Positions 8,858 through 53,062 of a stretch of 64,000 nt of DNA are shown one piece after another. This DNA is from Deltaproteobacteria bacterium (GTDB taxonomy: Bacteria > Myxococcota_A > Polyangia > Polyangiales > Houyiibacteriaceae). Position 1 is the stretch's first letter, and each line of letters begins with the position of its first letter. The notes below the pieces were generated by a model that saw nothing but the letters and a program-made list of their open reading frames with translations, did no database searches and had not been told where the DNA came from. Position numbers and translations under genes: made by a program. The stretch spans positions 4,687 to 68,686 of the forward strand of contig SHLP01000005.1 of assembly GCA_004283055.1 (NCBI GenBank). Direction: 5' to 3'.

Positions 8858-8888
8858 TGGGGCTCGGGCAGTCGGGCGGAAGGCTCAG

Positions 8889-34214: not shown

Positions 34215-35561
34215 CTACAGGCGACGCAGAACTTCATCCGCGGCGCGCTCGCCCGATTGAATCGCGCCCTCCATGTAGCCGATCCATTCGGTGGCTGCCT
34301 CGGTGCCAGCCCAGTGGATTCGGCCCTCGGGCTTGCGAAGATGCGCAAACGACTTGGTGAGCACGCCTGGCGGCAAGCCACCGACCGGGCCTCCGCGCGA
34401 CCAGGGCTCCGCCCCCCAGTCGAGCTCGTGGTACTCCTCGAACGATCTGGCCTCCTCGCCGAAATAGCGCGCGAGCGCGTTGGCAACGCGGCGCTTTCGA
34501 TCCGAGAGAGGTTGCGCAGACCATTGCCGCGCCTGGCTTCCAACGACGAACCCAACCAGCGCGGGCTGCTGCCCGTCATGCGACGTGTTGTCATACACGA
34601 CGCTGAGCGGACCGTCCGAGCTGACCACTTCGCCCGAGAGGCCAGCTTCACGCCAAAACGCGCGCTCGTAGGTTACGAGCACCTTCACCGCAGCGCCCAT
34701 CGCAAAGCGCTGCGTGACTTGGTCGCGGCCGACCGAGACGGGGGGCTCGTATTCAATCCGCCCGGCAAGCGGCGGCGGTACGGCAACGACGGCGAACCTC
34801 GCTGCAATCGACCGGGAGTCACAGTGCGCTTCGACCCCGTCACGATGGTGGACGATCGTGCGAACCGGGGCGCCGAGGATCAGCGCGTCACCGAGCTCTT
34901 TGGCGAGCGCATTTGAAATCGACTGCGCGCCCGGGACGAAGCGATCCTGCTGCGCGCCGCCGCGGGTCTCCGAATGGCTCAAGAGGCCGCCCCCGGCGTT
35001 GAGGTACATCAGGAAGTAGAGCGCTGAAAGCTCCCGCGCTTCAGCGCCAAAAATCGAGCGAATCGCGGCATCCATCACCGCTAAGATTTTGCCCGACTTC
35101 ACGAACCGCGCCCGCCAGGTCTCGAGCGTTTCGCCGTCGAGGTCCTCGGCGCCCTCCGCACTCATCGGGGCAGTCGGCGAAATCCGCTTCTGCACGCGGT
35201 GGAGGTAACTAAGCGCGCCCTGCATCTGAATCAGCGATGGAAGCGACATCGAGGCGACCGAGCGCTTGTAGGTCGAGACCTTCCCCTCGACTTCCAAGAC
35301 CTTCTTGCCATCGCTGTACGTGGGGAAGGTTTGGATACCGAGCTCGTTGGCAAGCGCGTGCACGCGGTCCTGGCCGGGCCCGATCCACTGGCCGCCCAGG
35401 TCGAAGGTGCCACGCCCGATCTGTTCGGTGCGCGTGCGCCCCCCTACGCGATCGCGCGCCTCGATGACGAGGACGGACTTGCCCTGCGCACGAAGCTTGC
35501 GCGCCGCGCAAAGCCCCGAGAGCCCCGCTCCAATCACAACGACGTCCGCCCGATCATCCAT
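34215..35561 (-). CDS. flavin-containing amine oxidase (monoamine oxidase family)
   Basis: FAD dinucleotide fold DVVVIGAGLSGLCAARKL...VLVIEARDRVGGR, followed by ...DLGGQWIGP.... Confidence 0.85.
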   Translation of the reverse strand: MDDRADVVVIGAGLSGLCAARKLRAQGKSVLVIEARDRVGGRTRTEQIGRGTFDLGGQWIGPGQDRVHALANELGIQTFPTYSDGKKVLEVEGKVSTYKRSVASMSLPSLIQMQGALSYLHRVQKRISPTAPMSAEGAEDLDGETLETWRARFVKSGKILAVMDAAIRSIFGAEARELSALYFLMYLNAGGGLLSHSETRGGAQQDRFVPGAQSISNALAKELGDALILGAPVRTIVHHRDGVEAHCDSRSIAARFAVVAVPPPLAGRIEYEPPVSVGRDQVTQRFAMGAAVKVLVTYERAFWREAGLSGEVVSSDGPLSVVYDNTSHDGQQPALVGFVVGSQARQWSAQPLSDRKRRVANALARYFGEEARSFEEYHELDWGAEPWSRGGPVGGLPPGVLTKSFAHLRKPEGRIHWAGTEAATEWIGYMEGAIQSGERAADEVLRRL

Positions 35562-35590: not shown

Positions 35591-36259
35591 TTACTCAATT
35601 TTGGTGATTCTCGTTCGCCTTCGTTTCCGCGGAAGCGGTGCTTTTTGATGGTCGAATGACTGGTGCACGACGAAGATATCATCTGCGTCGGAGAGCATTC
35701 TCAAATGGGTTGGGTGCTGCGGGATTAGATCAGGTTGACCCTGCGTGTCGAGCTTCACTACGAAGTCGGTCCCTGGTGGAGCCGAGGCTGAGAACTGCGC
35801 CACACCCTCCGAATTGGTGTGCGCAACGGTGTGCCCGTTGAGAAGGACCGGCAGGCCAGCGCCGTTGTTCGCTCGAACGATGAAAACCGCGAGCCGCTTT
35901 TCAAGTTTGCATCTGAGGGTGACTTTCAATGCGCCTCGCTGAGACTCGCCAATTCCATCCAAGGGGCGGATCCGGAAGAACTTGGGCACGGCCCCTTCGG
36001 TGTGTCCAGGCGGACAAACGCACTCGACTCTCAGTCGTTGCCCTGGCTTGCCGTCAATTTTTGCACGCAGGACGCCGTTGGAGTTGGTCTTGCCTAGGGC
36101 TTTCCCCTCGAGCTCGACAAGCACGTTGCTGAGCCGCAGGCCTCGATCCGATGCAACTTCGAAGACGACCTCGATCGCCGACTCGGGCGACAAGCGCGCG
36201 TGACAGGATGCCAACACACCGGCCGCAACGATGAGCACGTAGGGCCGCGTCAACGGCAT
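35591..36259 (-). CDS. lipoprotein of unknown function, last gene of the Tad-like operon
   Basis: ATG at 36259 gives MPLTRPYVLIVAAGVLASC, a lipobox. There are two internal ...TNSNGV.../...TNSEGV... beta-sandwich-like repeats. The track start at 36292 is GTG and would overlap the upstream gene further. Confidence 0.5.
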   Translation of the reverse strand: MPLTRPYVLIVAAGVLASCHARLSPESAIEVVFEVASDRGLRLSNVLVELEGKALGKTNSNGVLRAKIDGKPGQRLRVECVCPPGHTEGAVPKFFRIRPLDGIGESQRGALKVTLRCKLEKRLAVFIVRANNGAGLPVLLNGHTVAHTNSEGVAQFSASAPPGTDFVVKLDTQGQPDLIPQHPTHLRMLSDADDIFVVHQSFDHQKAPLPRKRRRTRITKIE

Positions 36260-36792
36260 GCGCCACGTCCGGGGCCAGAGGATGGACCGCACCTCAGCTT
36301 TGCCCTGAGCACCATGACGAAATCGCGAAACGTACGGTCATCGGGGAAAATGCTGGCGAGGGCCTCGTACTGACGGAGAGCAGCGGGAAAGTCGTTCGAT
36401 GCGATGAGTGCAGCGGCCTGCTTTTCGAGCTTCGCCCTTTGCTCGGCACTGAGCTCATTATCCGCCGAATGACGCTCCACCCGTCGTTGTTGGGGGGATT
36501 CCGGTGGCTGTGGCGCTGAGTGAGAAAGGAGCACCGCGCTGCTCTGACGAGCAGCCCGAATCTCAGTCAGCACCTCGCGCAAAGCGTCTGCAGCCTGTTG
36601 CTGTTGATGCATCACCAAGCCAAGGCCGACGAGAAGTGTGAACGCAACGCCAACCTCGATGATCTCTCGCCTGTAGCTCGATAGCATGGCCCGAGGGGTG
36701 CTCCGTGTTCGCCTTGCTCGATGCTTGGTGCGATCGACCAAAGTGTGTTCCTCGTCGCTTTCCGGGAGAATCATCGTGGGCGGCTCGTTCAT
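36250..36792 (-). CDS. single-pass membrane protein of unknown function (Tad-like operon)
   Basis: ATG at 36792 (MNEPPTMILPE) forms an ATGA overlap with the ATPase stop (36789-36792). TM segment IIEVGVAFTLLVGLGLV, then a Q-rich/coiled region and a TPR-like tail. Confidence 0.5.
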   Translation of the reverse strand: MNEPPTMILPESDEEHTLVDRTKHRARRTRSTPRAMLSSYRREIIEVGVAFTLLVGLGLVMHQQQQAADALREVLTEIRAARQSSAVLLSHSAPQPPESPQQRRVERHSADNELSAEQRAKLEKQAAALIASNDFPAALRQYEALASIFPDDRTFRDFVMVLRAKLRCGPSSGPGRGACR

Positions 36793-37787
36793 TCGACGCC
36801 CTCGATGTCTTCCAGCCGTTCGAACAAGTGCTCTAGTTGATAGCCGCTTTCTGCATCCCAACCGTGGACCTCTGAGACGTGCGTCACGAAACGCGCGCCT
36901 TCAGGGCCGCGCGAAACCTGTACAATCGTGTCCACAGCAGAGGCGATCTGAATCCGAAGAACTGCGAGCGGCACTCCTACGTCGCTCATGAGCGCCATCG
37001 TTTCCAACCGGCTCAGAGTGTCGATAGGAAGTGTGGCGTGAACCGTGGAAAGGCAGCCTCGATGACCAGAGGTCATCGCTTGAATCAGGTCGAGAGCCTC
37101 TCCGCCACGAATCTCGCCGATGACGATACGGTCGGGGCGCAATCGAAGCGTGGCCCGGAGAAGGTCGCGAATCGTTACGCCGCCCATACCGCGGACGTTT
37201 GGCGGCTGCGACTCGAGTTGTACGACGTGGCGTAGTTGAATCTGAAGCTCTTGTGAGTCTTCAATGACCACGACCCTTTCATCATCGGAAGCGAGCGATG
37301 ACAGAGCATTGAGGAAAGATGTCTTACCGGACCCACTTCCGCCTGCGATGATCACGTTGTGTTTTCGTTCAACTACGGATCGGAGCAGGGTCGAGATCTC
37401 GCGAGGGACCGAACCCAGCTCGACCAGGCGTTGGAGCGTCGGCTGCTGCCGTCGAAAGCGCCTGATGCTGACGACGGGACCCGAGGGGGCGGCTGGTGGA
37501 ATCACCGCTTGGACCCTGGATCCGTCGGGAAGCCGGGCTTCCAAGATCGGTCGCTCAGGGTTGAGCTCACGGCCCACGAACTGCGAGAGATTTCGAAGTG
37601 CTGACATCAGATCGTGTTCTGAATCAAAGCGACTGTCGGAGAGATGGAGTCGACCCTCTGTCTCCACGTAGATCTCGTCGTGTCCATTAATCATGATCTC
37701 GCTCACCTCGTCGCCGTCGAGGTAGGGCGCTACCGGGCGAAACAGCGACGCGACCGTTTGTTCGAAGACGTAGCGAGGAATTCTCAT
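36789..37787 (-). CDS. CpaF/TadA-family (T2SS-E type) secretion ATPase, short form without N-terminal domains
   Basis: Walker A GGSGSGKTS, Asp box VVVIEDSQEL, Walker B RPDRIVIGEIRGGEA, His box SGHRGCLSTVHA. ATGA overlap with the upstream gene at 37784-37787. Confidence 0.85.
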   Translation of the reverse strand: MRIPRYVFEQTVASLFRPVAPYLDGDEVSEIMINGHDEIYVETEGRLHLSDSRFDSEHDLMSALRNLSQFVGRELNPERPILEARLPDGSRVQAVIPPAAPSGPVVSIRRFRRQQPTLQRLVELGSVPREISTLLRSVVERKHNVIIAGGSGSGKTSFLNALSSLASDDERVVVIEDSQELQIQLRHVVQLESQPPNVRGMGGVTIRDLLRATLRLRPDRIVIGEIRGGEALDLIQAMTSGHRGCLSTVHATLPIDTLSRLETMALMSDVGVPLAVLRIQIASAVDTIVQVSRGPEGARFVTHVSEVHGWDAESGYQLEHLFERLEDIEGVE

Positions 37788-38476
37788 GGCGCCTGCGCCG
37801 CGGGGCTAGCGTCGACTCGAGAGGACATACGACGGGGGCCCACGCCCGCGTGGAGGCTTTCGTCGAGAAAGGACTGCGCTTCGGGGGCGTGATGTCCGTC
37901 GGGCGCAAGCTCGAGGTACTGTTCCAGCTGCGCGTTGATTTGAGCTCGGTCGTCGCCGTTGTCGCGATAGAGCATAGCTAGCCGGTAGTGAGGCAACGCC
38001 CAGTCAGGCTCAGCTCGCACGATGTATTCGAGCTCCGATTTCGCACGTGCCGAATCTCCTAGCGCTTCGTGGAGACTGGCGACGACGAGACGAAGTGACC
38101 AGTGTCTAGGATTTTCGCGAAGGTAACGGTGCGCGTGGCGCAATGCGGACTGATAGCGGCTTGCCGCAATGCAGACCCGCACCAGCCATCGAATCGCGGA
38201 CGCCTGCTCATGCCCTCGCTGTCGCGCGGCGGCTAGATACTGCTCAGCCCGCAGGAAGTCACCGGAATGCGCGTGTGAGACGCCAAGGAGAAAGAGGTCC
38301 TCCGCCGTGACGTTGGTAAGCTCCGACTGGAGCTCCGAGCTTTGATGAAGCGTTGGGTGATTACATCCGAGAGTGACCGCAAGGCATGAGGCAAGCAAGA
38401 GCCTGTGTTCTTTGTCAGAGCGTCGTGCTTGCGCGCGCTGTGGTTCTACCGACGATTTTGTTGAGCCATTCGACAT
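37784..38476 (-). CDS. TPR-repeat lipoprotein (TadD-like candidate)
   Basis: Lipobox LAVTLGC followed by TPR-like helices. GAGGAGGG sits directly before the first ATG (38482) and 7 nt before the second ATG (38476), so I favour 38476. Either start overlaps the 3' end of the upstream gene. Confidence 0.6.
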   Translation of the reverse strand: MSNGSTKSSVEPQRAQARRSDKEHRLLLASCLAVTLGCNHPTLHQSSELQSELTNVTAEDLFLLGVSHAHSGDFLRAEQYLAAARQRGHEQASAIRWLVRVCIAASRYQSALRHAHRYLRENPRHWSLRLVVASLHEALGDSARAKSELEYIVRAEPDWALPHYRLAMLYRDNGDDRAQINAQLEQYLELAPDGHHAPEAQSFLDESLHAGVGPRRMSSRVDASPAAQAP

Positions 38477-38966
38477 ACCCATCCCTCCTCAAATGCGCGG
38501 TCAGGAGAAGCAAACGATGAATCTCGCTCAGTGCATCCGACCATCGAGCCTGGTCGAGCGCTGTGACCAGGTTTAGACGCGCCGCTGCGTAGTCCGTATT
38601 GACGCGCGCAGCGATGGCGGCGTGCAAACGGCCCGCACGAACCGCGTCATCATGCGAGCCGGCGCCTCGGTAGCACGCCTCGGCTTGCGCGAAGTGGTAT
38701 GCTGCTCGAACACCGTCGCCGGCATCGTACGGATAGCGGTCCGCAAACAGAAGACCGCGCTCCTCCAAACGTCGAGCGCTTGTCACTCCCTCGTCACGAA
38801 GCGGGCAGGGCTGCACATCGGCGAAGAGCTCCGGGTAGTCGTCGAGCGCTTGCTCGTCGACGTTGGTCGACTCCCGGCCTCGAAACCATCCGATGAGAGC
38901 CGCGAGTACGCACGCCGCAAGCAAGAGGAAGAGGCCTTGCACTCGGACTGACGGAGCACTCGTCAT
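38415..38966 (-). CDS. membrane-anchored protein of unknown function (Tad-like operon)
   Basis: ATG at 38966 (MTSAPSVRVQGLFLLLAACVLAALIGWF) forms an ATGA overlap with the tadC-like stop (38963-38966). One N-terminal TM segment and a helical C-terminal part. Confidence 0.5.
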   Translation of the reverse strand: MTSAPSVRVQGLFLLLAACVLAALIGWFRGRESTNVDEQALDDYPELFADVQPCPLRDEGVTSARRLEERGLLFADRYPYDAGDGVRAAYHFAQAEACYRGAGSHDDAVRAGRLHAAIAARVNTDYAAARLNLVTALDQARWSDALSEIHRLLLLTAHLRRDGYVEWLNKIVGRTTARASTTL

Positions 38967-39877
38967 GCCGGTCCGAGCCCTCCGGTCATGAAGCGAACGA
39001 CAACCGGGCCCAGAAGCAGAGCGATCACGCATAGAAAGATCAGCGTCATCGGACCCAGCAGCATGAGTGCAGCCTCCGACGCCGTCTCTTCGGCCGCAAC
39101 GCTTCGCCGCAAACGCTGTGTTTGTGATTGAATTCGGAGAACGCGAGCGAGGGGGCTGCCTCGTTCTTCTGCTTGAACGACGCTATTTACGAACTCCCGA
39201 ACCTGATCGGTCGGAATTCGGGATGCGAGCCCCTCCATTGCGCTTCGTCGAGTGTGACCGAGGTCGAGCTCCTGCAGGACTCTCGAGAATTCCTCGATGA
39301 TGGGGTCGCTGTCATCGGACGCGCTTTGGACGATGCGTCGGAGTGAACCGGGGAAGTCCAAGCCCGCGCTCATGCACATGGACGCGAGCTCGACCGCGGC
39401 GGGAAGCCGGCGGCCTACCATCTGTGCTCTTTGCTGAGCGACACCAACGATGCGAAACCAGGGAAGGACAGCTCCGAGGCCGAGAGCTCCGACTGAAACA
39501 AGCCAAGATACGCCCAGGAACCGGCACGCAATCAGCGTCCCGCCTCCGAGGCCGAGGCCAGAGAGAAGACAGAGCGCGATCAGCTCGTCGTCGGACAGCC
39601 CGAGGTAGTCGCCCGCATACGTCAGCAGGCGGCGTACGCGTGTACGTATCTGTTCCATCCGAATCGGTGCGAGCCATGCGGCAATCAGGCGGAGCGTTGG
39701 CTCAAGCCAGGCGAAGAAGCTGCCACGACTCAAAGCTCTGGCTCGATTTAGGCCCCGAGTACCCAGGACGGGTCGCTCCGCTGCACGGATCCTTGAGAGC
39801 TCAAATGTGAAACGGGATACGCCTCCCAGGATCAGCGCAAAAACCAGCGTGAGGAAGCTATCGAACGGACCGATCAC
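38963..39877 (-). CDS. TadC-like inner-membrane platform protein (T2SS-F domain)
   Basis: T2SSF-type domain (...LPAAVELASMCMSAGLDFPGSLRRI...) flanked by TM helices. GTG at 39877 forms a GTGA overlap with the tadB-like stop; the track start is 39925. Confidence 0.8.
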   Translation of the reverse strand: MIGPFDSFLTLVFALILGGVSRFTFELSRIRAAERPVLGTRGLNRARALSRGSFFAWLEPTLRLIAAWLAPIRMEQIRTRVRRLLTYAGDYLGLSDDELIALCLLSGLGLGGGTLIACRFLGVSWLVSVGALGLGAVLPWFRIVGVAQQRAQMVGRRLPAAVELASMCMSAGLDFPGSLRRIVQSASDDSDPIIEEFSRVLQELDLGHTRRSAMEGLASRIPTDQVREFVNSVVQAEERGSPLARVLRIQSQTQRLRRSVAAEETASEAALMLLGPMTLIFLCVIALLLGPVVVRFMTGGLGPA

Positions 39878-40730
39878 AAGTCGACCTTCGCGATGTGATG
39901 AGCCCAGACCGTAGCGAAGATCCACAGCAGGGCGCAGGTTGCGAGGAGTGCCTGACCAAGCTTCTGATTCAGCATTGGCTCGAACCAGGACCTATCGAGC
40001 CACGCGATCATGATGCAAAGAAGAAAGGGCACGGAGGCCAGGACCAGAACCTGCCCACGGCCCTCGGCTGTTCTGGACCGAAGCACGCCCTCGAGCCTCG
40101 CGGATTCCCGAAGGGCCTCCGACGCATGCTCCAAAGTCTTGGACAAGTCGCCACCGGTCTGACGTGCAACCACGATCGTCGCTAGGGCTCCAGAAATCGC
40201 GGTGCTGTCTATTCGTCGGGCGAGAGCGTTGATCGCGCGATCGAGCGGCGCACCTAATCGGATCTCTTTGACCAGTAGGTCGACCTCTGCACTAAACGGC
40301 TTGGGCATCAATGAAACGGTCGAAGCAATCGCTTCTCCAACGGAGGAGGTCGCTTTGAGCGCATTGGCCAACATGAGTAACCACGTATCGAGCTGACGTT
40401 CGAGTTGCTCGACGCGCGCGCGGTGACGCTTCCACAAAACGAACGGCGGCGCCGCCGCAGCCAAGAACATGAGAAGGGCAAACACCGAACTTCGAGTGAC
40501 CGCACTCATGCCTGCCAAAGCAGAGCAGGTGATGAGTTGTGCCAACGCGATTTGTGACCCTCGGTAGCGGAGCAAGAGAAAACTCGAGTGCCGTTCGAGT
40601 CGCTCGGCGTAGCGTCCCCATCGCCGCTGCGCGAAGTTTCCTTCGATGGAGAACGAGAGATACGTGATGGCCGCACAGCCGCAGACGAGAAAAACAGCCG
40701 ACGAAATGAGAAGCGGGAGGGCATCGAGCC

Positions 40731-40734
<4 letters not shown>
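39874..40734 (-). CDS. TadB-like inner-membrane platform protein (T2SS-F domain)
   Basis: T2SSF-type domain (...LDTWLLMLANALKATSSVGEAIASTV...) plus TM helices. GTG at 40734 forms a GTGA overlap with the ATPase stop. Confidence 0.8.
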
Positions 40735-42310
<1,576 letters not shown>

Positions 42311-42314
<4 letters not shown>

Positions 42315-43456
42315 CTCTCTCCTTCAACCGTGGAGGCGGTGGAACGCCCAACGCGAGGCTGATCCAGGAGGTGGTGGTCGTCGACATGACCCCGGAAGCT
42401 CTCGTATACACGAAGCGCCTCTTCGACTCGGTCTCTTTGACTCAAGCTGACTGGCTCGATGACCGAAGGAACCACGAACATGTACGACTGGTCGTCTTCG
42501 ATCTCGCGGGAATGCGTACCGAAGAGCGCGCCGATGAATGGAGCGAGAGCCAAGCCTGGGATTCCGCTTCTCCTTCGCCTCTCGGTGCGTGCGCGAATTC
42601 CAGCTAGGGAAACGGACTGACCCAGCTCGAGATTCACCAAGGTTTCGATGTGTGAAGTGATGCGGCCGGGAATCCCTCTCGCTCCTTTTTCCGAATCTAG
42701 GTCGGACACGTCAGCCACGATTTCAAGCTCGATGCGACCAGTCTTGGAATCGTACGTAGGGAGAACACTGACCTTCGTCCCGAACTCGATGGCCTGCACG
42801 TTCACGGTCAAATTGTTTTGGACTTGAACGTTGAACTCCCCGCCGGAGGTGAACACGGCTTCGGTGCCATTGGCAGTCACCAAGGTGGCTTGACGGTACA
42901 GCTTCGCCCACCCTTTAGCCTGTGCGAGGTCGAAGCTCGGCAGGAACGTCTGCGGCAGAATTTGAAACGCGCTCTGTGTGGCTTGTCCGCTGCCGCCCGT
43001 AATCGCGATGGCGGCCTCGGAAGGCCCGAGGGTGCTACCGATGTTCCCGGGCCAGTTGAGCCCAATTTGGTGCCCATAGCGGTCCTGGATCAGTACGAAA
43101 TACAAGTCCAATCGGATGTTCTCCCGTCCTCCAAATCCCTTTGTCGCATCTGCTGGAATGACTCGAATTGTGTACTGCAGCTGGTTGCCGTCGCTCTTGA
43201 TCAGCAGCAACGAAGTCGCGCCCTCCTGCTTGCCAACCAGCACGAAGCGACTCTGGTCGCGCGTGATTCGGATGTCGGCGAAGCCAGGTGCACCCTCGGA
43301 GTAGCTTTTGATGCCTCGCGCGGACAGGCTCTTCTGCTCACCGACTCGCAGGGTGATCGAACGCTCGGCGTCGAGATCGGCTCTAGCTTCAGCCTCGAGC
43401 GCCCCGGAAACGAGGACAAGCGTTGCGAGCGCGAACCTGTTCGCGAGGATAGTCAT
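42311..43456 (-). CDS. CpaC/RcpA-like outer-membrane secretin
   Basis: Signal peptide MTILANRFALATLVLVSGALEAEA. N-terminal BON/pilus-formation-like domain. Secretin C-domain ending ...RRSGIPGLALAPFIGALFGTHSREIEDDQSYMFVVPSVI. Confidence 0.85.
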
Positions 43457-43457
43457 C

Positions 43458-44219
43458 TTAGTCGACCCTCTCGATCCTCAATCGCCGTTGGCGACGAGCT
43501 CGCTTCTCTTGTTCGAGCACGTCGGAGTCGTCGGTCTCCGGGAGACCTTCATTGATCTCCAGATCGTTTTCGTTGCGGAGGAGGAGACTCAAGCTCGAAT
43601 CACGTCGGGCCTGGGCAAGCAGGCTAGCCTGGTCGATCGTGACCAGAAGCGTGACGGGGTCCGATCGAAGCGAGGAGTCGTGGAGGTCTGCCGCTGCGAA
43701 TCGGGCACCGACGGCGAGAACCAGAATATTCTGCAGAAGGGGGATCGTGACGACGCTTGCCTCCGAGCCTGGCTTTGCCTTGGTGAGCAGGACGTCGACC
43801 CGATCGCCGGGACGTATCAGCGGAGCCAGGTTTCGTCTTCCCGCGGCGTCGATGCTGATCGCCCGCATGCCTTTTGGGATGCGGCTCGACAGCGAGCTCC
43901 GATCGCTTGGAGTAGTCGACAGGTCGGTCCAGAGTAGAGTCTGGTTCGCCTCGAGCGCGATGGATGCGCGGACTCCCAGGACCCGTGGAAGTGCGCTGGC
44001 GAGGACTTGACGTTCCTCGACGTAACTCTCGGGCAAGGCTCTCACGAGCAACATCTCCTCGGTTAGAGGAACACCTGCCGCGACGTTCTGACTCGTAACG
44101 AGCAATGCGATGGGATCACCGCCGGTCGCATCTCGCTGAAACTCCCGCACGTAAGCAAAAAGAAGCACAAAGCCCAGGGCGGCGACGATGGCGGATGCGA
44201 GGAGGGCGGTTCGGTTCAT
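43458..44219 (-). CDS. CpaB/RcpC-like pilus assembly protein
   Basis: N-terminal TM segment, SAF-like domain (...VTSQNVAAGVPLTEEML...) and RcpC-like C-domain (...IRPGDRVDVLLT...LLQNILVLAVG...). Confidence 0.85.
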   Translation of the reverse strand: MNRTALLASAIVAALGFVLLFAYVREFQRDATGGDPIALLVTSQNVAAGVPLTEEMLLVRALPESYVEERQVLASALPRVLGVRASIALEANQTLLWTDLSTTPSDRSSLSSRIPKGMRAISIDAAGRRNLAPLIRPGDRVDVLLTKAKPGSEASVVTIPLLQNILVLAVGARFAAADLHDSSLRSDPVTLLVTIDQASLLAQARRDSSLSLLLRNENDLEINEGLPETDDSDVLEQEKRARRQRRLRIERVD

Positions 44220-44235
44220 GGACGGTGGACCCTGG

Positions 44236-45096
44236 TCACGACGGTTGAGAGATCAGTATGGAGACGACGGTGGCGGAGGCGTCGCTGGAATGGGCGAGAA
44301 CAGTGACGGTGCGATTCGCGCGCTCGGCCGAAATGGTACGGATGCCGTCGATCACGAACGCCTCGGAAGGATGCCGCTCGATGATCGTCCAGCCGTTTGC
44401 CGAGAGCTGAGTTCGGTAGAACGACTCGAGCGCAGCTGCCGACTCCTGCAGCACCCGGTACACGACGAAACCGCTGGGCGACCCCACCTCCCATGCGGAC
44501 AAGAGCCGCTGCGAGCTCTGAGGGCGGGGGACTGATTCGATGTCTTTGCCTGCTGCTTCGGCCCCGTCGAGGGCTAACATTCGAAAGACGGGAAAGGCGG
44601 AATCGGCCCAAACCGTGAGAACGAACGTCCGGTCGCCGGACGTGCCGGACACCCGGCGCGCGCGCGCGTATCGAAGCCCTCCCAGCTCGGTCAGGTTTCC
44701 GGTCTGGGAGAAGCGAACAAACCGACCTGCGAGCGCCCGCAGATTTCGCGGCGCATCGCCCATGTCGAGACACGCAACGTGACCTCCGTCTTTGCCGCGG
44801 TGCGATTGCATGGAGAGCCGCTCGGCGATTCCCGCACCAGCGCCGATGCAGAGCGACTCGTAGTGTCCAAGAACGTCCTCTAGCGGCGCTGCGACTGTTT
44901 GGGTACGAAACGAAATCGGCACGCCGTTCAACTGCAGGACCCGTGCTCTGCCCGGAGGCGTGCCGGGATAACTCATGGATTCAGCTCCCCCGCTCGATAG
45001 GAACCCCGCAACCTCGGCATCGGCCGAGCGCAGCAGGACCGCGGAGCCGAGGGCTCCGAAGGCGAGAAGGAACAGCCCAAGCCGCAGCAGCGGCAT
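44236..45096 (-). CDS. exported protein of unknown function (Tad-like operon)
   Basis: ATG at 45096 gives MPLLRLGLFLLAFGALGSAVLLRSADA, a signal peptide. The track start at 45117 is GTG and would overlap the upstream stop at 45101. I recognise no family. Confidence 0.5.
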   Translation of the reverse strand: MPLLRLGLFLLAFGALGSAVLLRSADAEVAGFLSSGGAESMSYPGTPPGRARVLQLNGVPISFRTQTVAAPLEDVLGHYESLCIGAGAGIAERLSMQSHRGKDGGHVACLDMGDAPRNLRALAGRFVRFSQTGNLTELGGLRYARARRVSGTSGDRTFVLTVWADSAFPVFRMLALDGAEAAGKDIESVPRPQSSQRLLSAWEVGSPSGFVVYRVLQESAAALESFYRTQLSANGWTIIERHPSEAFVIDGIRTISAERANRTVTVLAHSSDASATVVSILISQPS

Positions 45097-45100
45097 CGTT

Positions 45101-45634
45101 CTATCGGCACACTTCACGCGCGTACTCCGTGTTTTGCAGACCCGTGTGGCAGGCGTGCTCCAGGACGTTGCCCGCTCCTCGGGCGGTCCGAGCCGTGGTG
45201 TTGCAGAGCAGGGTCGTCACTCCATGCTGCGAGCCGATCGCGGGGCTCAGCATCGTCGGCATCGAGGATTTAGCTGAGCCCACCCCGTTCGTCGCCTGGC
45301 CCAGAAAGAAGCGGCCGAGGTTTCCGAGAAAGGAATCCAAGGACAGGCGGCCGTCGCGCACTGTGAGCAGGTCATCGAGACCACCGGCGCGAAGCTCGCC
45401 TTCGATGCGACCGCACTCCCCGCTTCGACAGCTTTGCGTGGGACATTCGCCCGAGTCGGCCTGCAGCCACGCCATTCGCCTGGCGCGAGACTTCGCTTCT
45501 AGCTTTGCTCCGTACATCCCATTGAGGCCGATCACCCCTGCCAAACAGGCTACAAACACCGGGAGACTAATCAGGGCTTCCAGCATCGCGGTTCCGCTTT
45601 CGTCGCTCAGCAATTGTCGAATGGATGCACCCAT
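45101..45634 (-). CDS. TadE-like pseudopilin
   Basis: ATG at 45634 gives MGASIRQLLSDESGTAMLEALISLPVFVACLAGV, a TadE N-terminal motif followed by a hydrophobic helix. The track start at 45868 would overlap the upstream gene by more than 200 nt. Confidence 0.65.
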   Translation of the reverse strand: MGASIRQLLSDESGTAMLEALISLPVFVACLAGVIGLNGMYGAKLEAKSRARRMAWLQADSGECPTQSCRSGECGRIEGELRAGGLDDLLTVRDGRLSLDSFLGNLGRFFLGQATNGVGSAKSSMPTMLSPAIGSQHGVTTLLCNTTARTARGAGNVLEHACHTGLQNTEYAREVCR

Positions 45635-45641
45635 GATGTCC

Positions 45642-46850
45642 TCAGTGGGCAGAGACCGCGTTGATGGAAAAATCACGGGCAACGTCACAAATACCCGAGA
45701 GCCCTTCGAGCGACCCCCGCCCTCTCGCGGCCGAACAAGCGCTGAGAATTCCGCTGGGGATCCAACTCCGCGAAATTCGAAACCTCCGAAGCCGTGCGCG
45801 CCACCTCTGTTTCCAGAGCCATTCGGCTTTGTGCTCAGTGCCGTCGAAATAGTACTCGGCCTGAGCAAACGCGAGGCGTCCTACGACGTGCGCCTCGTGG
45901 ATGGAGCTCCGTCCGTCTGTCCCACCGCCCTGTGCGATTCGAACGCCCCGCTCGCCGTTTCGCCAATGACTCCGATGGGGGTCGTGGCCGATGGCGTACG
46001 CCCGGTATTGGAATTCCTCGTGCCCAAGCCATACGGGAGTTTCATCACCTCGGGTTTCAATCACGCGGCGAGGTGACTCGACTACGTCGTCTGCACACGT
46101 TCGTCGTTTTCCAAGTCGAAGTGCCTGGCCGACTACGCCCCCGAGAAACCTGAGAAGCCAACGGGGAACCCTCGATCTCACATTCCTCAGCCTGTTGCTC
46201 AGCCCATCGGCGACTCGATCGCAGACGACGCCGAGCTCGTCCTCCTCGACGGGAAGCCCCCGACCGCCGCCCGGAAGACGCGAACCGAGAAGCGGGACGA
46301 CAAAGCCCCCCGAAACCGGGGGGTCGTAGGCAGCCTGAAAAGCCATCGCATCGACCGCCCGCGCTTCGGCAAGCAGCGGGTACGTATGCTGAACCACCTT
46401 GTGAGCGGCATTCAACGCGTGATGAGCCGTCCGAACGAACTGCTCGACCGCGTCGCCGACCCTTTCTACCGTACTCTCGACGGGGCTGAGCGCGGCGATG
46501 AGCGCGGACGCCTTCGCCGCCAGGAGGACTGTCGCGACCAAGCCGTACAGAATCCCGAGAGTGATCTCGAGCAGCACCTCGACGCTGCGAATGACGAGCA
46601 GGATGCCGGCGGTTACGGCCATCACCACATTGAGTAAGACATGAAGGTTCATCCCCTTCGCGCCCATCACTGATGCCGCGTACGCACCGGCATCGGCGCC
46701 GTCTTGCATGATGCGCCGGTACACGACGGCGTCGCCTACGCCGAGGATGTAGTAGAGAGCCCCTATGAGAAGGAGCGCCATGAAGAGGGACATCAGCATC
46801 ATGGCGCCTCGCGTATCGTCCAGAAGGCGGGCTCGATTCAAATGCCTCAT
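45642..46850 (-). CDS. TadG-like pilus assembly protein
   Basis: N-terminus ...DDTRGAMMLMSLFMALLLIGALYYILGVGDAV matches the TadE/G-like N-terminal motif. About 400 aa. ATGA overlap with the upstream gene at 46847-46850. Confidence 0.65.
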   Translation of the reverse strand: MRHLNRARLLDDTRGAMMLMSLFMALLLIGALYYILGVGDAVVYRRIMQDGADAGAYAASVMGAKGMNLHVLLNVVMAVTAGILLVIRSVEVLLEITLGILYGLVATVLLAAKASALIAALSPVESTVERVGDAVEQFVRTAHHALNAAHKVVQHTYPLLAEARAVDAMAFQAAYDPPVSGGFVVPLLGSRLPGGGRGLPVEEDELGVVCDRVADGLSNRLRNVRSRVPRWLLRFLGGVVGQALRLGKRRTCADDVVESPRRVIETRGDETPVWLGHEEFQYRAYAIGHDPHRSHWRNGERGVRIAQGGGTDGRSSIHEAHVVGRLAFAQAEYYFDGTEHKAEWLWKQRWRARLRRFRISRSWIPSGILSACSAARGRGSLEGLSGICDVARDFSINAVSAH

Positions 46851-47638
46851 GAACGCCTCGGACGATACTCGTAGGGTGCGTCATGGATGAGCAGCGTGGT
46901 TTCGTGCTGTAGACCCCGAAATCGACCCCCGACGATAGACTGCGCCAGCGGGAAGAACGCTCCGCCGATCTCTTCTCGAGCCGCGAGGTCCGCGAACGAG
47001 CGACAAAGAATTTTTCGCGCAAGGGGCACCGTGCACTGAAAGGCATAGGTCACCCTCACGGTGATCTCTGGCTGGTCGGCTACGCTTCCCTGAAGCCCCG
47101 GAAACGTCACCGCTAGGGCAAACGGCTGATAGTACAGCGCAGATAAGAGCCTACGCTGAGTTCCGATTGCCTTGGCAATACTGGGCTGCGAATCGCGACC
47201 GACATTTTCAGGTGCTAGAGGCATCAGCGGCACGTGTGCGGCCAGCCGAATCGTGTTGAGGCGCGACCTTCCAAGGTTCACCAAGGCCGCCGAGGAAAAG
47301 GCGCGGGATAGACCTGCTCCGCTCGCGCCGACCTGTGCGGCAGAACCGATTTGCTCGAGCGCGAGACCGAGATCGGCCGCCGTCACGGCGTTGCGGGCCA
47401 CGCTCATTTTCGCTTCGCCGCCGTACTCGTTGGGGTCGTCAGGCAGGACGACTGCGGCCGATCGCGCGGCTGAGTCAGCCGAGTGCTTCACGATGAGGTC
47501 CGCATGGGCAATGAAGGCGAGCTGGAGGATGCATAGGAAGAACGACCACATCGGAACGAATGCGATGAGGAGCTCGAGGAAGACGACGCCGCGCTTGTCA
47601 GCAAATAGGGAGCCAGAACTTGACGAGACCACCGTCAC
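46847..47638 (-). CDS. TadE/TadF-like pseudopilin
   Basis: ...DKRGVVFLELLIAFVPMWSFFLCIL is a TadE-like N-terminal motif. GTG at 47638 forms a GTGA overlap with the peptidase stop; the alternative GTG at 47650 is the track start. Confidence 0.65.
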   Translation of the reverse strand: MTVVSSSSGSLFADKRGVVFLELLIAFVPMWSFFLCILQLAFIAHADLIVKHSADSAARSAAVVLPDDPNEYGGEAKMSVARNAVTAADLGLALEQIGSAAQVGASGAGLSRAFSSAALVNLGRSRLNTIRLAAHVPLMPLAPENVGRDSQPSIAKAIGTQRRLLSALYYQPFALAVTFPGLQGSVADQPEITVRVTYAFQCTVPLARKILCRSFADLAAREEIGGAFFPLAQSIVGGRFRGLQHETTLLIHDAPYEYRPRRS

Positions 47639-48180
47639 AGACCCGCCCACCCAAACAGGAGATGCGGCGCGGTGAGGATCCCGGTCGCGGCGAAGACCGG
47701 AGCGCCCATGCGAATGGGCGCAACTAGCTCATCGCACGGGTCGCGACGCCAACGTTGCGGAAGCACGGGGCCCAACGCGACCGCCCAGGCGTTCCCTAGA
47801 GTTCTGGTTAACGCCCCTTTCCATGCCAGCGAGGCACTGGTGACGATCAAGGCTGCCACGAGTGCCGCGAGCTGGATTTCGACGCCGAGCAGCAGGTCGA
47901 AGCCCATCACCGCACCAAGTGCGCCAAAGAGCTTGACGTCGCCGCCCCCCATCGCGCCGCGGCGAAAGAGCAGGTACGGGACCAAGCCGGCCAAGAATGC
48001 AGCCGCGAGGCTGTGAAGTGCGTATTCGACGCCGAACGCGAGTCCGTAGCTCGCCGGCGCCAGCAGTAGGGCCGGAAGCGTCAGCCAATTCGGGATTTCA
48101 CCTCGTCGCCAATCCCAAAACGCGGCTGTTGCGGCGACAAACAAAGCGAGGCTCGCAGCGATGGTTACGCCGGTCTCCAT
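47635..48180 (-). CDS. A24-family prepilin peptidase (CpaA/TadV-like)
   Basis: ATG at 48180 (METGVTIAASLALFVAATAAFWDWRRGEIPN...). Both catalytic Asp contexts are present (DWRRGEIPN and GGGDVKL). The upstream 194 codons of the track ORF 47635..48762 read through flp in another frame and are rejected. Confidence 0.85.
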   Translation of the reverse strand: METGVTIAASLALFVAATAAFWDWRRGEIPNWLTLPALLLAPASYGLAFGVEYALHSLAAAFLAGLVPYLLFRRGAMGGGDVKLFGALGAVMGFDLLLGVEIQLAALVAALIVTSASLAWKGALTRTLGNAWAVALGPVLPQRWRRDPCDELVAPIRMGAPVFAATGILTAPHLLFGWAGL

Positions 48181-48191
48181 CCCACATTCCT

Positions 48192-48377
48192 CTACTGCAC
48201 GACGTCCGCGATGTATCCGTCGGCTGCTTCGACCTCGCCGATTAAGGTCTCGCCAAATTGCTGCCAAGCCGCGATGCCGACAACGGCGATCAAACCGAGC
48301 ACGATGATGTACTCGACTGTGGTCAGTCCCCGCTTGTCCGATAGCAACGTTTTCTCGATTTCTGCTTTGTCTTTCAT
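48192..48377 (-). CDS. flp: Flp/Fap-family type IVb prepilin
   Basis: MKDKAEIEKTLLSDKRG|LTTVEYIIVLGLIAVVGIAAW carries the G-X4-EY Flp processing motif followed by a hydrophobic helix. GAGAGGAAGG Shine-Dalgarno upstream. Confidence 0.85.
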   Translation of the reverse strand: MKDKAEIEKTLLSDKRGLTTVEYIIVLGLIAVVGIAAWQQFGETLIGEVEAADGYIADVVQ

Positions 48378-48392
48378 GACTGCCTTCCTCTC

Positions 48393-48527
48393 TCAGGGCA
48401 CCGGCAAAAGGATGAAGAGTTTCGTGATATAAAAAGCCTGGACGAGGGGTACGCCGAGGCCGTAGAGCGCGAGGCCGACCGCCAGAACGACGACCCCTGT
48501 GAGCAACGCGTATTCGGCGAACACCAT
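48393..48527 (-). CDS. candidate 44-aa leaderless Flp-like hydrophobic peptide (not in ORF track)
   Basis: Hand translation: MVFAEYALLTGVVVLAVGLALYGLGVPLVQAFYITKLFILLPVP. ATG is cat at 48525-48527, with an in-frame TGA 9 nt upstream; the stop is tca at 48393-48395, 15 nt before the flp ATG. About 35 of 44 codons end in G/C. There is no clear Shine-Dalgarno. Confidence 0.35.
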   Translation of the reverse strand: MVFAEYALLTGVVVLAVGLALYGLGVPLVQAFYITKLFILLPVP

Positions 48528-48604
48528 GACCGCTCATCGGACGGGGGCGGTGGATGTTGTGTCGAAACTCCTTCGCCCGTTCAGAACGCGGCCGGCCAAC
48601 GAAA

Positions 48605-48620
48605 TGGCACGCGACCCGCT
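48605..48620 (+). promoter_or_regulatory. candidate sigma-54 promoter (TGGCACG-N6-CGCT)
   Basis: TGGCACGCGACCCGCT has an exact -24 element (TGGCACG) and the conserved GC at the canonical GG-N10-GC spacing. The -12 element is CCGC rather than TTGC. It lies about 105 nt upstream of the SRPBCC ATG at 48726. Confidence 0.25.
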
Positions 48621-48725: not shown

Positions 48726-49154
48726 ATGGCCTCCTTGAGCAAGAACGCAGTGATTCATGCACCGCCGGACCCCGTGTTCGCGTACGTCAGCGATCCTTCC
48801 AAGTTCCCCGAGTGGCTTCCGAGCATGGTCGAGGTTCGAAATGTCCTCGGTGCGGGCGCCGGGCAACAGTACGAGTGGACCTACAAAATGGCCGGAATGC
48901 TTCTTCGGGGGCAGAGCACCGTAGTCGAATACACCCCGAATCAACGCGTCGTGCTTCAGAGCATCGGCTCGATTGGCAGCGATTGGACCTTCACCGTCGA
49001 GCCGCACGAAGCAGGGGCGCTTCTGCGTATCGAGGTCGAATACAGCGTCCCCGTCCCGGTCTTAGGCAGGCTGGCCGAAAGGCTCGCGCTGAGCCGAGAC
49101 GCTCGTGAGTTCGCGGTCGGGTTTGACAATCTCAAAGAGGCTCTAGAGGGCTAG
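48726..49154 (+). CDS. SRPBCC-superfamily protein (copy 1 of tandem pair)
   Basis: MASLSKNAVIHAPPDPVFAYVSDPSKFPEWLPSMVEVRNV...QQYEWTYKMAGMLL... has a polyketide-cyclase/START-like fold pattern. ATG at 48726. Confidence 0.7.
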   Translation: MASLSKNAVIHAPPDPVFAYVSDPSKFPEWLPSMVEVRNVLGAGAGQQYEWTYKMAGMLLRGQSTVVEYTPNQRVVLQSIGSIGSDWTFTVEPHEAGALLRIEVEYSVPVPVLGRLAERLALSRDAREFAVGFDNLKEALEG

Positions 49155-49174
49155 CCGAGGAGGAGCTCGCGCGA

Positions 49175-49603
49175 GTGCCTAGTTGGAAGAACAGCATCGT
49201 GATTCAAGCGCCGCCGGACCGCGTGTTCGCCTACGTCAGCGATCCTTCCAATTTCCCTGAGTGGATCCCGAGCATGGTGGAGATTCGGGACGTGATCGGG
49301 ACAGGCGCCGGGCAGCAGTACGAGTGGACCTACAAAATGGCTGGGATTCTGCTGCATGGGGAGGGCGTCGTCGTTGAGCACGTTCCCCAGGAGCGCTCGG
49401 TGCATCAGAACATCGGCATGATCGAAGCACACGTCGCATTCAGCGTCGAGCCCCACGAGGAGGGAGCGGCGCTGACCCTCGGGGTCGACTACGGCATTCC
49501 GATTCCCGTGCTCGGCAGGCTGGCAGAACGCATCGTGACGAGGCGGAACGAGCGGGAGTTCCAGCTGGCGCTCGACAACGCCAAAGAGCTGTTCGAAGCC
49601 TGA
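49175..49603 (+). CDS. SRPBCC-superfamily protein (copy 2 of tandem pair)
   Basis: GTG start at 49175 with GAGGAGGAG 9-10 nt upstream. Collinear with copy 1 (IQAPPDRVFAYVSDPSNFPEWIPSMVEIRDV...QQYEWTYKMAGILL...PVLGRLAER...). Confidence 0.7.
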   Translation: MPSWKNSIVIQAPPDRVFAYVSDPSNFPEWIPSMVEIRDVIGTGAGQQYEWTYKMAGILLHGEGVVVEHVPQERSVHQNIGMIEAHVAFSVEPHEEGAALTLGVDYGIPIPVLGRLAERIVTRRNEREFQLALDNAKELFEA

Positions 49604-49608
49604 CGGCG

Positions 49609-50862
49609 TCAATCCCTCGCACGAACCTGCACCGTCGTCGGGCGGTCTTCGGGCATCGGGAGGATGGCGTTCCAACCGGGCGGCAGAACGGGCTGGCTGA
49701 ACTGAAAGAGGTAGCGGGCGTCTGCGGGCGAGAGGTTGATGCAGCCGTGGCTTCGGCGGCGGCCGAAGTCGTTGTGCCAGAACGCGGCGTGAAAGCCGTA
49801 GCTGCCTTTGAAGAACTGCACCCAGGGGACATCTTGAATCGAGTAGTTCTTGTCGACGTCGGTGCGCTCGATGTCATCCATGTCGGAGTACTCGAGCTTG
49901 GCCCAGATCTGAAACACACCGAGCGGGGTCTCGGATTGCTTGCTGTTGCGGCCGGTCGAAACCAGGGTCGCGAAGGTGGGCTGCCGGCCTTCGTAGGCGA
50001 CGAGAACTTGCTCGTCGATGTCGATGTCGATCCATCGGTCGGTTGCGCCAACGCCTTCGGGGGGTTCGACGAGGCCGGCGCGCGCGAGGTCGGCGTTGCG
50101 CATCCACCCTCCCCCGGCGAGTTGGCTCCACGCCCCTCTGCTCGATTCGATGCGAACGGCTTGGTGGCGGTCGAGGCGTTTGAGAGCTCGGCCGTTGGGC
50201 GTCGCGTGTAGCTTGGCGGGCCTCGGTGAAACCCATGCGACGTCGAGCAGCTCACCGTGGCGGAGCTTCTCGCCGGTGAACGGGCTCCCATCGACGAAGT
50301 GAACCGAGCCGCGCTCGATCCAAAGGTAGCGGCGCGTGCGAATGAACTCCACGCCCTCGTAGACCTGCTTGCCGGTAATCACGATGCCATAGCCCTTGCC
50401 GAGCGCCTCGCTGTAGTCGTTGCGGAAGTAGTCGCTCGGGTGCGCGTACGCGCGAGTCCCGTCGAAGCGGACGAAGGCGTAGCGCTGGGGCAGGCGCGCG
50501 CCGGGGCCGGTGAGCTCGTCGCGCGTGGCGCCCGGGGGCAAGCCCGACGGCTGCACGTGCCCTTCGCAGATGAAGAGCTCGTCGCTGGTTTCATACCAGA
50601 CTCCGGTCGAGCAACCTTCACCGAAGACCCTGCGCGTGAAGCCGAGACGCGTGCCGGCGCCGACGGTGCCGCGGCGCCGTGAGCTGGAGTCGGCCTCGAG
50701 CATCACCGGGGCGCCGTCGTTCACGACTTCAATCGACTTGGCCCAAGGAGGCGCCGGGGCCGCGGATGAGCCGACGGCTGCATCGGCGGCCACCCCCTGA
50801 GGCCAGCCGACGGCTAGCGCTGTGATGAACAGAACTGCGGCCCCAACCATGGCCTTCATCAT
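49609..50862 (-). CDS. L,D-transpeptidase (YkuD domain) with N-terminal extension, secreted
   Basis: C-terminal YkuD catalytic motif ...FHAAFWHNDFGRRRSHGCINLSPADA.... ATG ATG at 50862/50859 gives the signal peptide MMKAMVGAAVLFITALAVG. The track start at 51180 would overlap the upstream gene. Confidence 0.8.
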   Translation of the reverse strand: MMKAMVGAAVLFITALAVGWPQGVAADAAVGSSAAPAPPWAKSIEVVNDGAPVMLEADSSSRRRGTVGAGTRLGFTRRVFGEGCSTGVWYETSDELFICEGHVQPSGLPPGATRDELTGPGARLPQRYAFVRFDGTRAYAHPSDYFRNDYSEALGKGYGIVITGKQVYEGVEFIRTRRYLWIERGSVHFVDGSPFTGEKLRHGELLDVAWVSPRPAKLHATPNGRALKRLDRHQAVRIESSRGAWSQLAGGGWMRNADLARAGLVEPPEGVGATDRWIDIDIDEQVLVAYEGRQPTFATLVSTGRNSKQSETPLGVFQIWAKLEYSDMDDIERTDVDKNYSIQDVPWVQFFKGSYGFHAAFWHNDFGRRRSHGCINLSPADARYLFQFSQPVLPPGWNAILPMPEDRPTTVQVRARD

Positions 50863-50884
50863 AGGCGGGAGCAGCGCCGATCGC

Positions 50885-52977: not shown

Positions 52978-53062
52978 CCTGTCAATCGCATCCCTTCCTT
53001 GACCAGGCCACCGCCCGCAAAGGACAATGGAAAAGCGCCTCAGGGGGGGCGGACGAGCTGAG

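Follow-up and report, generated by a model that had tools for sequence, protein, structure and literature searches.

Here, we analysed a 64,000-nt stretch of DNA (contig SHLP01000005.1, positions 4,687 to 68,686; hereafter, the window) from an uncultured bacterium of the order Polyangiales, in which 17 same-direction open reading frames (ORFs), labelled g0 to g16, occupy the minus strand from 48527 to 35591. These genes encode a real, conserved variant of the Kil-like class of Tad machines, with an FHA-fused motor, a short secretin, no TadZ and a triplet of minor-pilin-like proteins, and our analysis revealed that a second CpaF-family ATPase, g14, is an integral part of this machine. We propose, at roughly even chances, that this is a chromosomal, single-operon Kil-like Tad (type IVc, Flp) pilus machine in which g14 would act as a second motor on a shared TadB/TadC platform.

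A second CpaF-family ATPase fixed in the operon

The original prediction, made from the sequence alone, had described a single, translationally coupled Tad/Flp-like operon with two secretion ATPases, and both features are borne out. Each of the eight 4-nt start/stop overlaps is an ATGA or GTGA in the coding direction; at the remaining junctions, the distance is between -10 and +16 nt, except for that of g13, which has an ambiguous start. Profile searches against Pfam and NCBIfam recovered Flp, the A24 peptidase, CpaB, the secretin, FHA::CpaF, TadB, TadC, a TPR lipoprotein and a second CpaF-family ATPase. All listed ORFs exist, although the count had been given as 16 genes whereas the accompanying list names 17.

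The main, KilF-like motor, g9 (40731..42308; this and all other operon genes are on the minus strand), is a protein of 525 aa that combines an FHA domain (6e-13, residues 28-88) with a T2SSE domain (3e-61, residues 176-452). It matches the Caulobacter CpaF structures (4e-112) over CpaF residues 87-476, and the three-helix N1 region is therefore present behind the FHA domain. The second ATPase, g14 (36789..37787; 332 aa; T2SSE, 6e-55), consists of the N2 and C-terminal domains only: it matches CpaF residues 148-444 of 501 (3e-80), that is, from the N2 domain onward, with N1 absent and the end falling short of the CpaF C-terminus. The two proteins are 40% identical. The window g14 retains an intact Walker A motif, Walker B glutamate and His box, which are also widespread among its orthologues (Walker A in 78/86, Walker B with Glu in 81/86, His box in 86/86), and the overall conservation of g14 approximates that of g9.

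Both ATPases were placed in a neighbour-joining tree of 187 shared columns, with references from the published KilF supermatrix. The g14 orthologues fall into a single, long-stemmed clade (99.5% bootstrap) that is about equidistant (1.05-1.18) from g9 and from every other CpaF group; thus, g14 represents a separate lineage that is either old or fast-evolving, which a neighbour-joining tree cannot tell apart, rather than a recent local copy of g9. A search of cluster representatives with g14 returned mostly general CpaF and fused multi-ATPase proteins, and the g14 family itself is reduced to only a few of these when sequences are clustered at 50%.

There are thousands of g14 homologues; the 120 best, at 67-93% identity, are nearly all 332 aa long and, where named, come from metagenome-assembled genomes (MAGs) of Polyangiales, Myxococcales or Deltaproteobacteria. 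A scan of one genome per species yielded 298 relatives, the best 80 of which are 52-86% identical and all derive from MAGs labelled Polyangiales, Polyangiaceae, Sandaracinaceae, Kofleriaceae, Myxococcales or similar; some of the relatives' record names point to estuarine or marine sediments (WOR, Guaymas). When all 17 products were compared by tblastn with loci picked through g14, the order cpaB-secretin-FHA::cpaF-tadB-tadC-g12-g13-g14 proved to be kept in about 80 species-level Polyangia genomes, even at a g14 identity of 52-64%, with g16 nearly always nearby (upstream of flp in some) and g15 recognisable in closer relatives only. At the other end of the range, the g9 protein recurs residue for residue in contigs of two MAGs (GCA_013001375.1 and GCA_013042225.1) and of several short-read assemblies, all with the same gene order. 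Even in the one rearranged locus, L081, g13 and g14 are still adjacent. As an independent test of the linkage, a metagenome scan was anchored on g4 instead: among the contigs that extend at least 2.6 kb beyond tadC, the second ATPase lies about 1.2 kb downstream in 22 of 22, and is therefore a fixed component of the machine in this lineage. Kept order, the g4-anchored contigs, the g13-g14 adjacency, sequence conservation and the catalytic motifs together identify g14 as an integral part of the machine.

These observations bear directly on the possibility that the operon encodes an ordinary adhesion Tad pilus, with the second ATPase a redundant paralogue of no special consequence. Extra tadA paralogues do occur elsewhere, dispersed as in Bdellovibrio, where the duplicated rcpA2-tadA2 module is dispensable (2026 preprint), and N1-less CpaF-like proteins of 330-390 aa are found in other phyla as well. 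However, g14 is monophyletic, deep-branching and about equidistant from all CpaF groups, and its length and position are kept at 52-86% identity across about 80 species-level genomes, whereas a redundant copy would be lost or decay. We thus regard this explanation as decidedly unlikely.

Relationship to Kil and other Tad machines

By homology of its parts, the core of the operon works as a Tad pilus. The inner-membrane platform consists of g10 (39874..40734; T2SSF, 3.5e-11) and g11 (38963..39877; T2SSF, 3.6e-16), the counterparts of TadB/CpaG/KilG and TadC/CpaH/KilH, respectively; g7 (43458..44219), a CpaB/RcpC/KilB protein (RcpC, 3e-22; TIGR03177, 1e-35, above the cut-off), is the periplasmic link, the short, RcpA-type secretin g8 the outer-membrane pore, and FHA::CpaF the main motor. 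The secretin (42311..43456; 381 aa) contains T2SS-T3SS_pil_N (3e-8, residues 31-99) and Secretin (3e-25, residues 179-334) as its only detected domains, and the lack of any further domain match suggests that N0 is absent; its closest solved structure is RcpA 8odn (1e-19).

The prepilin g1 (48192..48377; 61 aa) carries the cleavage motif KRG/LTTVEY, which leaves a mature part of 44 aa that is nearly invariant across orthologues, and matches Flp_Fap at 2e-5, below the family cut-off. It is followed by g2 (47635..48180), an A24 prepilin peptidase of the TadV/CpaA/KilA type (Peptidase_A24, 3e-17; GGGDVK motif) without a methyltransferase domain, the start of which we corrected to 48180 (181 aa) in line with gene callers. 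The G/xxxxE cleavage motifs present on g1, g3 and g5 fit this peptidase. The putative minor-pilin triplet comprises g3 (46847..47638; 263 aa; G/VVFLE), which is KilL-like in position and size, g4 (45642..46850; 402 aa; N-terminal hydrophobic helix after RG), which in the same respects is TadG/KilN-like, and the KilM-like g5 (45101..45634; 177 aa; G/TAMLE; TadE, E = 0.02). Together, they would form the pilus tip, as described for KilL-KilN-KilM by Herrou et al. 2025. The TadE and TadG labels given originally are weakly supported for the window proteins themselves (TadE on g3, E = 0.05), but the g3 orthologue of locus L061 passes the TadE cut-off (2e-7, 31 bits), whereas g4 has no TadE/TadG match in the window and the Tad family PF13400 appears weakly (0.014) in one orthologue. 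The g4 protein is kept at 66-96% in 78 metagenome loci.

As originally claimed, TadZ/CpaE is missing. The TadZ-type motif K?GGxGK[ST] occurs in none of the six frames of the 64-kb window, a scan that an atypical Walker A could escape, and the genes called up to 10 kb away in both directions have no ParA-like Pfam family on record.

Kil, the prey-killing Tad machine of Myxococcus, is defined by a single, FHA-fused ATPase, a short secretin without N0 and the absence of TadZ, TadD, TadG and RcpB (Seef et al. 2021, PMC8460266). By the same definition, FHA accessory proteins are numerous and the genes are divided between two clusters, namely MXAN_3102-3108 and MXAN_4648-4661 in M. xanthus (Seef et al. 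2021; Herrou et al. 2025). The window operon shares with it the FHA domain on the CpaF-type ATPase, the short secretin, the lack of TadZ, CpaB, TadB, TadC, the A24 peptidase, a Flp-type pilin inside the cluster and a minor-pilin-like triplet of mid-size, large and small proteins. Furthermore, FHA membrane proteins follow tadC in relatives of the window, as MXAN_4649 (FHA) and MXAN_4648 (FHA and TPR) follow kilH; by position and domain content, these two may correspond to the FHA-bearing forms of g12 and g15, respectively. Conversely, Kil has two clusters and a single ATPase, as opposed to one operon and two CpaF-family ATPases here; it has been described without TadD, whereas a TPR lipoprotein is present here; and its many FHA accessory proteins contrast with an operon in which g9 is the only FHA protein, the FHA domains of g12 and g15 having been lost in the window's subclade. 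The leaderless Flp-like gene g0 is a further difference. Of the three relationships to Kil that the original prediction had considered (orthology, a variant form or a distinct Tad-derived machine), the data support the second: the locus is a variant within the Kil-like class.

It had also been considered that a known Kil locus might explain all the unnamed proteins and the second ATPase, making the operon ordinary. We compared it with two Myxococcia-type cluster-1-like loci, L165 and L166 (M. xanthus cluster 2 was not included), which show a peptidase-secretin-FHA ATPase and an FHA ATPase-KilD-like arrangement, respectively; neither encodes a second ATPase or a match to g6, g12, g13, g15 or g16, and the identity between g8 and the secretin of a kil cluster-1-type locus is about 26%. 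The 235-aa M. xanthus KilF fragment of the eLife supermatrix was also tried as a query for the actual kil clusters and was abandoned, as it returned only proteins of at most 412 aa. In the ATPase tree, g9 orthologues group loosely with Bradymonadales (68% bootstrap), near Myxococcia KilF and beta/gamma-proteobacterial homologues; they never group with M. xanthus KilF alone, and the distance to the beta/gamma-proteobacterial homologues is similar.

Within cultured Polyangia, homologues of KilB-KilC-KilF-KilG-KilH are contiguous in Sandaracinus amylolyticus DSM 53668 (gene indices 8549-8553, the last being WP_053238508) and Labilithrix luteola, according to Supplementary Data 1 of Herrou 2025, in the same order as g7-g11. 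That table scores known Kil and Tip profiles only, not the genes after tadC, and the two Polyangia rows considered contain no Tip1-4 by the published Tip hidden Markov models. Thus, the core is already on record in Polyangia and the module after tadC is not. Our analysis extends the Kil-like class beyond Myxococcia, Bradymonadales and Bdellovibrionales to uncultured Polyangia with a different accessory set, which is relevant to the question of how often machinery for contact-dependent predation occurs in sediments and soils.

With the canonical Tad systems (Caulobacter cpa, Aggregatibacter tad and Pseudomonas rcp/tad), the operon shares the Flp G/xxxxEY motif, a TadV-type peptidase, putative TadE/TadG-type pseudopilins, RcpC/CpaB, an RcpA-type secretin, a CpaF/TadA motor and the TadB/TadC pair. 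By contrast, the canonical systems have TadZ/CpaE and a motor without an FHA domain, and their secretin is longer (a 426-residue deposited RcpA chain against 381 aa here). They also rely on one bifunctional motor, which is the rule (Ellison 2019; Hohl 2024; Yen 2025), as against two CpaF-family ATPases in the window. Full-text literature searches turned up no account of a second motor encoded in a Tad or Kil operon.

A possible division of labour between two motors

We read g14 as a second motor because it is catalytically intact, strongly conserved, co-transcribed with the remaining genes and N1-less like retraction motors. The distinctive part of the machine, after tadC, is a conserved module consisting of g12, g13, the catalytically intact, N1-less g14, g15 and g16. 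In the proposed mechanism, g14 and FHA::CpaF would take turns in docking on the TadB/TadC platform. Two motors would then share the work of extension and retraction (or mode-switching), which in the textbook Tad system is combined in one bifunctional CpaF. Such a split would parallel that of PilB and PilT in type IVa pili, in which, likewise, a long motor with an N-terminal extension and a short motor of N2 and C-terminal domains serve one machine, and would be an independent invention of the CpaF family: the lineage of g14 is that of CpaF/TadA rather than of PilT, and its likeness to PilT is only architectural (no N1). Dual-motor pili use opposite ATPase faces, and their N1-less motor retracts (Whitfield et al. 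2026); by analogy, g14 would have a retraction or mode-switching role. A more specific scheme, in which FHA::CpaF extends the pilus, g14 together with g12 and g13 retracts it or switches its mode, and g0 bypasses the prepilin peptidase, probably being made from a leaderless transcript, is conceivable but doubtful; if true, the locus would be a natural counter-example to the rule of one bifunctional motor for Tad pili.

How a single CpaF ring drives both extension and retraction is debated, with allosteric reversal and physical inversion of the ring among the proposals (papers from 2019-2026). The combination of an FHA-fused CpaF with a minimal CpaF paralogue in a widespread, conserved lineage offers a natural dissection of the two functions, and the two-motor reading leads to predictions about the face with which each ring contacts TadB/TadC and about the half of the cycle that each mutant would lose.

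Several considerations weigh against the two-motor, Kil-like interpretation. A contact of g14 with TadB/TadC, or an effect of g14 on pilus dynamics, is a proposal from sequence, and a role in predation would be pure analogy. About 40 C-terminal residues of g14 are lost in the window's subclade, and this region corresponds to the CpaF C-terminal motif linked to retraction (2026 preprint); the g14 of more distant loci reaches about 370 aa and equals CpaF in the length of its C-terminus (e.g., L054, 9998-11110). Furthermore, the positions of CpaF P386/R387 vary without pattern in g9 and g14 orthologues, so that no clean division of labour can be derived from the sequences. Nor is g14 a member of the PilT/PilU family (TIGR01420, 43.5 bits against a cut-off of 319), and the AIRNLIRE-type signature is absent from it. 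As for the affinity with Kil, g9 is 54.5% identical to the M. xanthus KilF core but 58% identical to a Burkholderia homologue, which makes its placement with Kil weak, and KilD, a cytoplasmic FHA protein of Kil, has no similar gene among the annotated ORFs of the window. The more particular idea that loss of the retraction residues P386/R387 from g9 tracks with g14, thereby dividing the labour, was considered and dropped, given the inconsistent pattern.

Alternatively, the second ATPase could be a regulatory or assembly factor rather than a motor, either as a stand-in for the TadZ hub or as a mixed-ring or capping partner that gates the activity of FHA::CpaF. The absence of TadZ is compatible with this role, and the window g14 lacks both N1 and the full C-terminal motif, the two surfaces proposed for platform contact, and is fixed beside the envelope proteins g12 and g13, not beside tadB/tadC. 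Nevertheless, all catalytic motifs are under strong purifying selection, beyond the need of a scaffold, the ancestral g14 of about 370 aa keeps a CpaF-like C-terminus, and TadZ is a ParA/MinD-type protein of a different fold, with no sequence-level support for its replacement by g14; hence, we consider such a factor unlikely.

For a two-motor pilus, as proposed here, the FHA domains, which are found on the motor and, in most relatives, also on g12 and g15, would tie assembly to phospho-threonine signalling, as has been proposed for Kil. Phospho-threonine control may be indicated by the FHA domains and likewise by an upstream Ser/Thr kinase and an FHA-sigma54 activator, both kept in synteny within the subclade, although no sigma-54 promoter was found ahead of the operon.

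Accessory proteins, the Flp-like micro-ORF and the neighbourhood

The original prediction had listed five proteins of no nameable family; two of these, g12 and g15, can now be interpreted as reduced FHA-transmembrane proteins. The 183-aa g12 (38415..38966) has an N-terminal membrane helix and, in an alignment of 46 orthologues, invariant Cys residues (C54 and C98), which suggests a helical periplasmic domain; its single-sequence AlphaFold2 (AF2) model is poor (pLDDT, the predicted local distance difference test, 62). In loci where g14 falls below about 64% identity, g12 orthologues have about 100 extra N-terminal residues, which match the FHA domain of g9 (hhalign, 96%, 2.9e-9). The 180-aa g15 (36250..36792) is a bitopic membrane protein with one transmembrane segment (residues 44-62). 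In the same distant loci, the gene after the second ATPase encodes a protein of 330-766 aa that is FHA-like at the N-terminus (91.6%, 8e-7; weak Pfam FHA and YscD matches), continues through a long linker and a single membrane helix, and ends in a part homologous to g15 (98%, 1.5e-13). Thus, g12 and g15 are FHA-less remnants of FHA-transmembrane proteins, examples of which lie at 8458-9342 and 11119-12663 of L054, and the ancestral locus, as reconstructed from these sequences, had three FHA proteins, matching the FHA-rich character of Kil.

Between g12 and the second ATPase, g13 (37784..38482) encodes a lipoprotein with TPR family matches and a lipobox that is always directly upstream of the second ATPase gene; it is TadD-like by architecture only. 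The last gene of the operon, g16 (35591..36259; 222 aa), encodes a lipoprotein with the lipobox LASC and, in the 46 aligned orthologues, invariant Cys82 and Cys117; it has no match in Pfam or the PDB. The exported, putatively periplasmic g6 (44236..45096; 286 aa) has a signal peptide, invariant Cys83 and Cys109, a weak match to PF27226 and 40 detectable homologues, all at least 46% identical. A Foldseek search of the PDB with its AF2 model (pLDDT 78; predicted template modelling score, pTM, 0.70) gave no match at E <= 0.001 and nothing below E = 0.046, and profiles of g6, g12 and g16 found nothing significant among PDB sequences.

That g6, g12, g13 and g16 are predicted envelope proteins, with invariant Cys pairs in g6, g12 and g16, raises the possibility that g12-g16 form an envelope module of their own that has only the operon in common with the pilus genes. 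Outside pilus dynamics, such a module might use the second ATPase to export or insert a tip protein or an effector. The location of g16 elsewhere in some genomes would be compatible with this, and the toxin-delivery step of Kil is still unknown (Seef 2021, PMC8460266). However, the module lacks a T2SSF platform or channel of its own, and VirB11/CpaF-type ATPases act on such platforms; moreover, g12-g16 never occur without the Tad core in the examined loci, although these loci were chosen through g14 or g4. A separate device of this kind therefore appears highly improbable to us.

The micro-ORF that had been noticed upstream of flp is a real, conserved gene. It encodes g0 (48393..48527; 44 aa, MVFAEY...), has 44 codons in all 50 distinct DNA versions and mostly precedes flp by 15 nt. 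Between pairs of versions, the difference is 0.146 at the first, 0.073 at the second and 0.379 at the third codon position, with 16142 synonymous against 9593 non-synonymous codon differences. The protein starts with M/V-V-F-A/T-E-Y, such that, aligned with mature g1 (hhalign, E = 2.6e-5), E5-Y6 keep the Flp register. Mature g1 likewise has a length of 44 aa; g0 has no Pfam match. The most divergent homologue, in L152, has Thr at +1 and an open upstream frame (...RQG/TVFTEY), that is, the structure of an ordinary prepilin, whereas the other homologues begin with a start codon at +1, and three codons before it there is usually a stop. Thus, the leader of g0 appears to have been lost. Starting exactly at the mature +1 position, g0 would not need the peptidase, and a leaderless Flp-like protein, of which full-text literature searches found no description, would be a new way to feed a type IV filament machine. 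Reductions thus occurred in parallel in the window's subclade, affecting the FHA domains of g12 and g15, about 40 C-terminal residues of g14 and, as it appears, the leader of g0.

No Shine-Dalgarno sequence precedes g0. Instead, information content across 47 related loci delineates a conserved, promoter-like motif (48534..48563, minus strand) with (c)ACGCAAC at -36 to -29, a 15-nt spacer and CCGATGA at -13 to -7, followed by G.GC and the start codon; intergenic DNA outside the ACGCAAC and CCGATGA elements is not conserved. The AAC-N16-CGA spacing resembles that of promoters recognised by extracytoplasmic function (ECF) sigma factors and would put the transcript start at or near the start codon of g0. 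A sigma-70 scan gave no matches. A sigma-54 promoter for the operon, suggested by the upstream FHA-sigma54 activator, was also considered and rejected, there being no conserved GG-N10-GC element at this location. A sigma-54-like GG-N10-GC element, TGGCACGCGACCCGCT (TGGCAC-N5-CCGCT), is present at 48605-48620 on the plus strand near the FHA-sigma54 activator, facing two SRPBCC genes; its conservation does not extend to L090, the only comparable locus, and it probably arose by chance.

Upstream of the operon, at 49610-56699, genes for a TgpA-like transglutaminase, a Ser/Thr kinase, ribulose-phosphate epimerase, the FHA-sigma54 activator and a YkuD L,D-transpeptidase follow each other in an order kept in about 20 related contigs. 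In many of these contigs, the L,D-transpeptidase gene ends about 100 nt before g0; in the window, the spacer separating YkuD from g0 contains the two SRPBCC (Polyketide_cyc2) genes (48727-49604, plus strand), which run in the opposite direction. They appear to have been inserted there and are found in some related loci only, as judged from a mis-framed tblastn query and from spacing. Downstream, 29 nt beyond g16, a flavin amine oxidase gene (34215-35561) begins, likewise on the minus strand; where related loci include downstream sequence, only L132 has it next to the operon, and it is probably not part of the system. An Rfam search of the window gave no hits. Finally, the third-position GC content of the operon genes is 0.64-0.73 (0.78 for g0), compared with 0.75-0.84 in flanking housekeeping genes, and the overall GC content of the region dips to 0.58-0.61, which could reflect a lateral origin or a different expression level.

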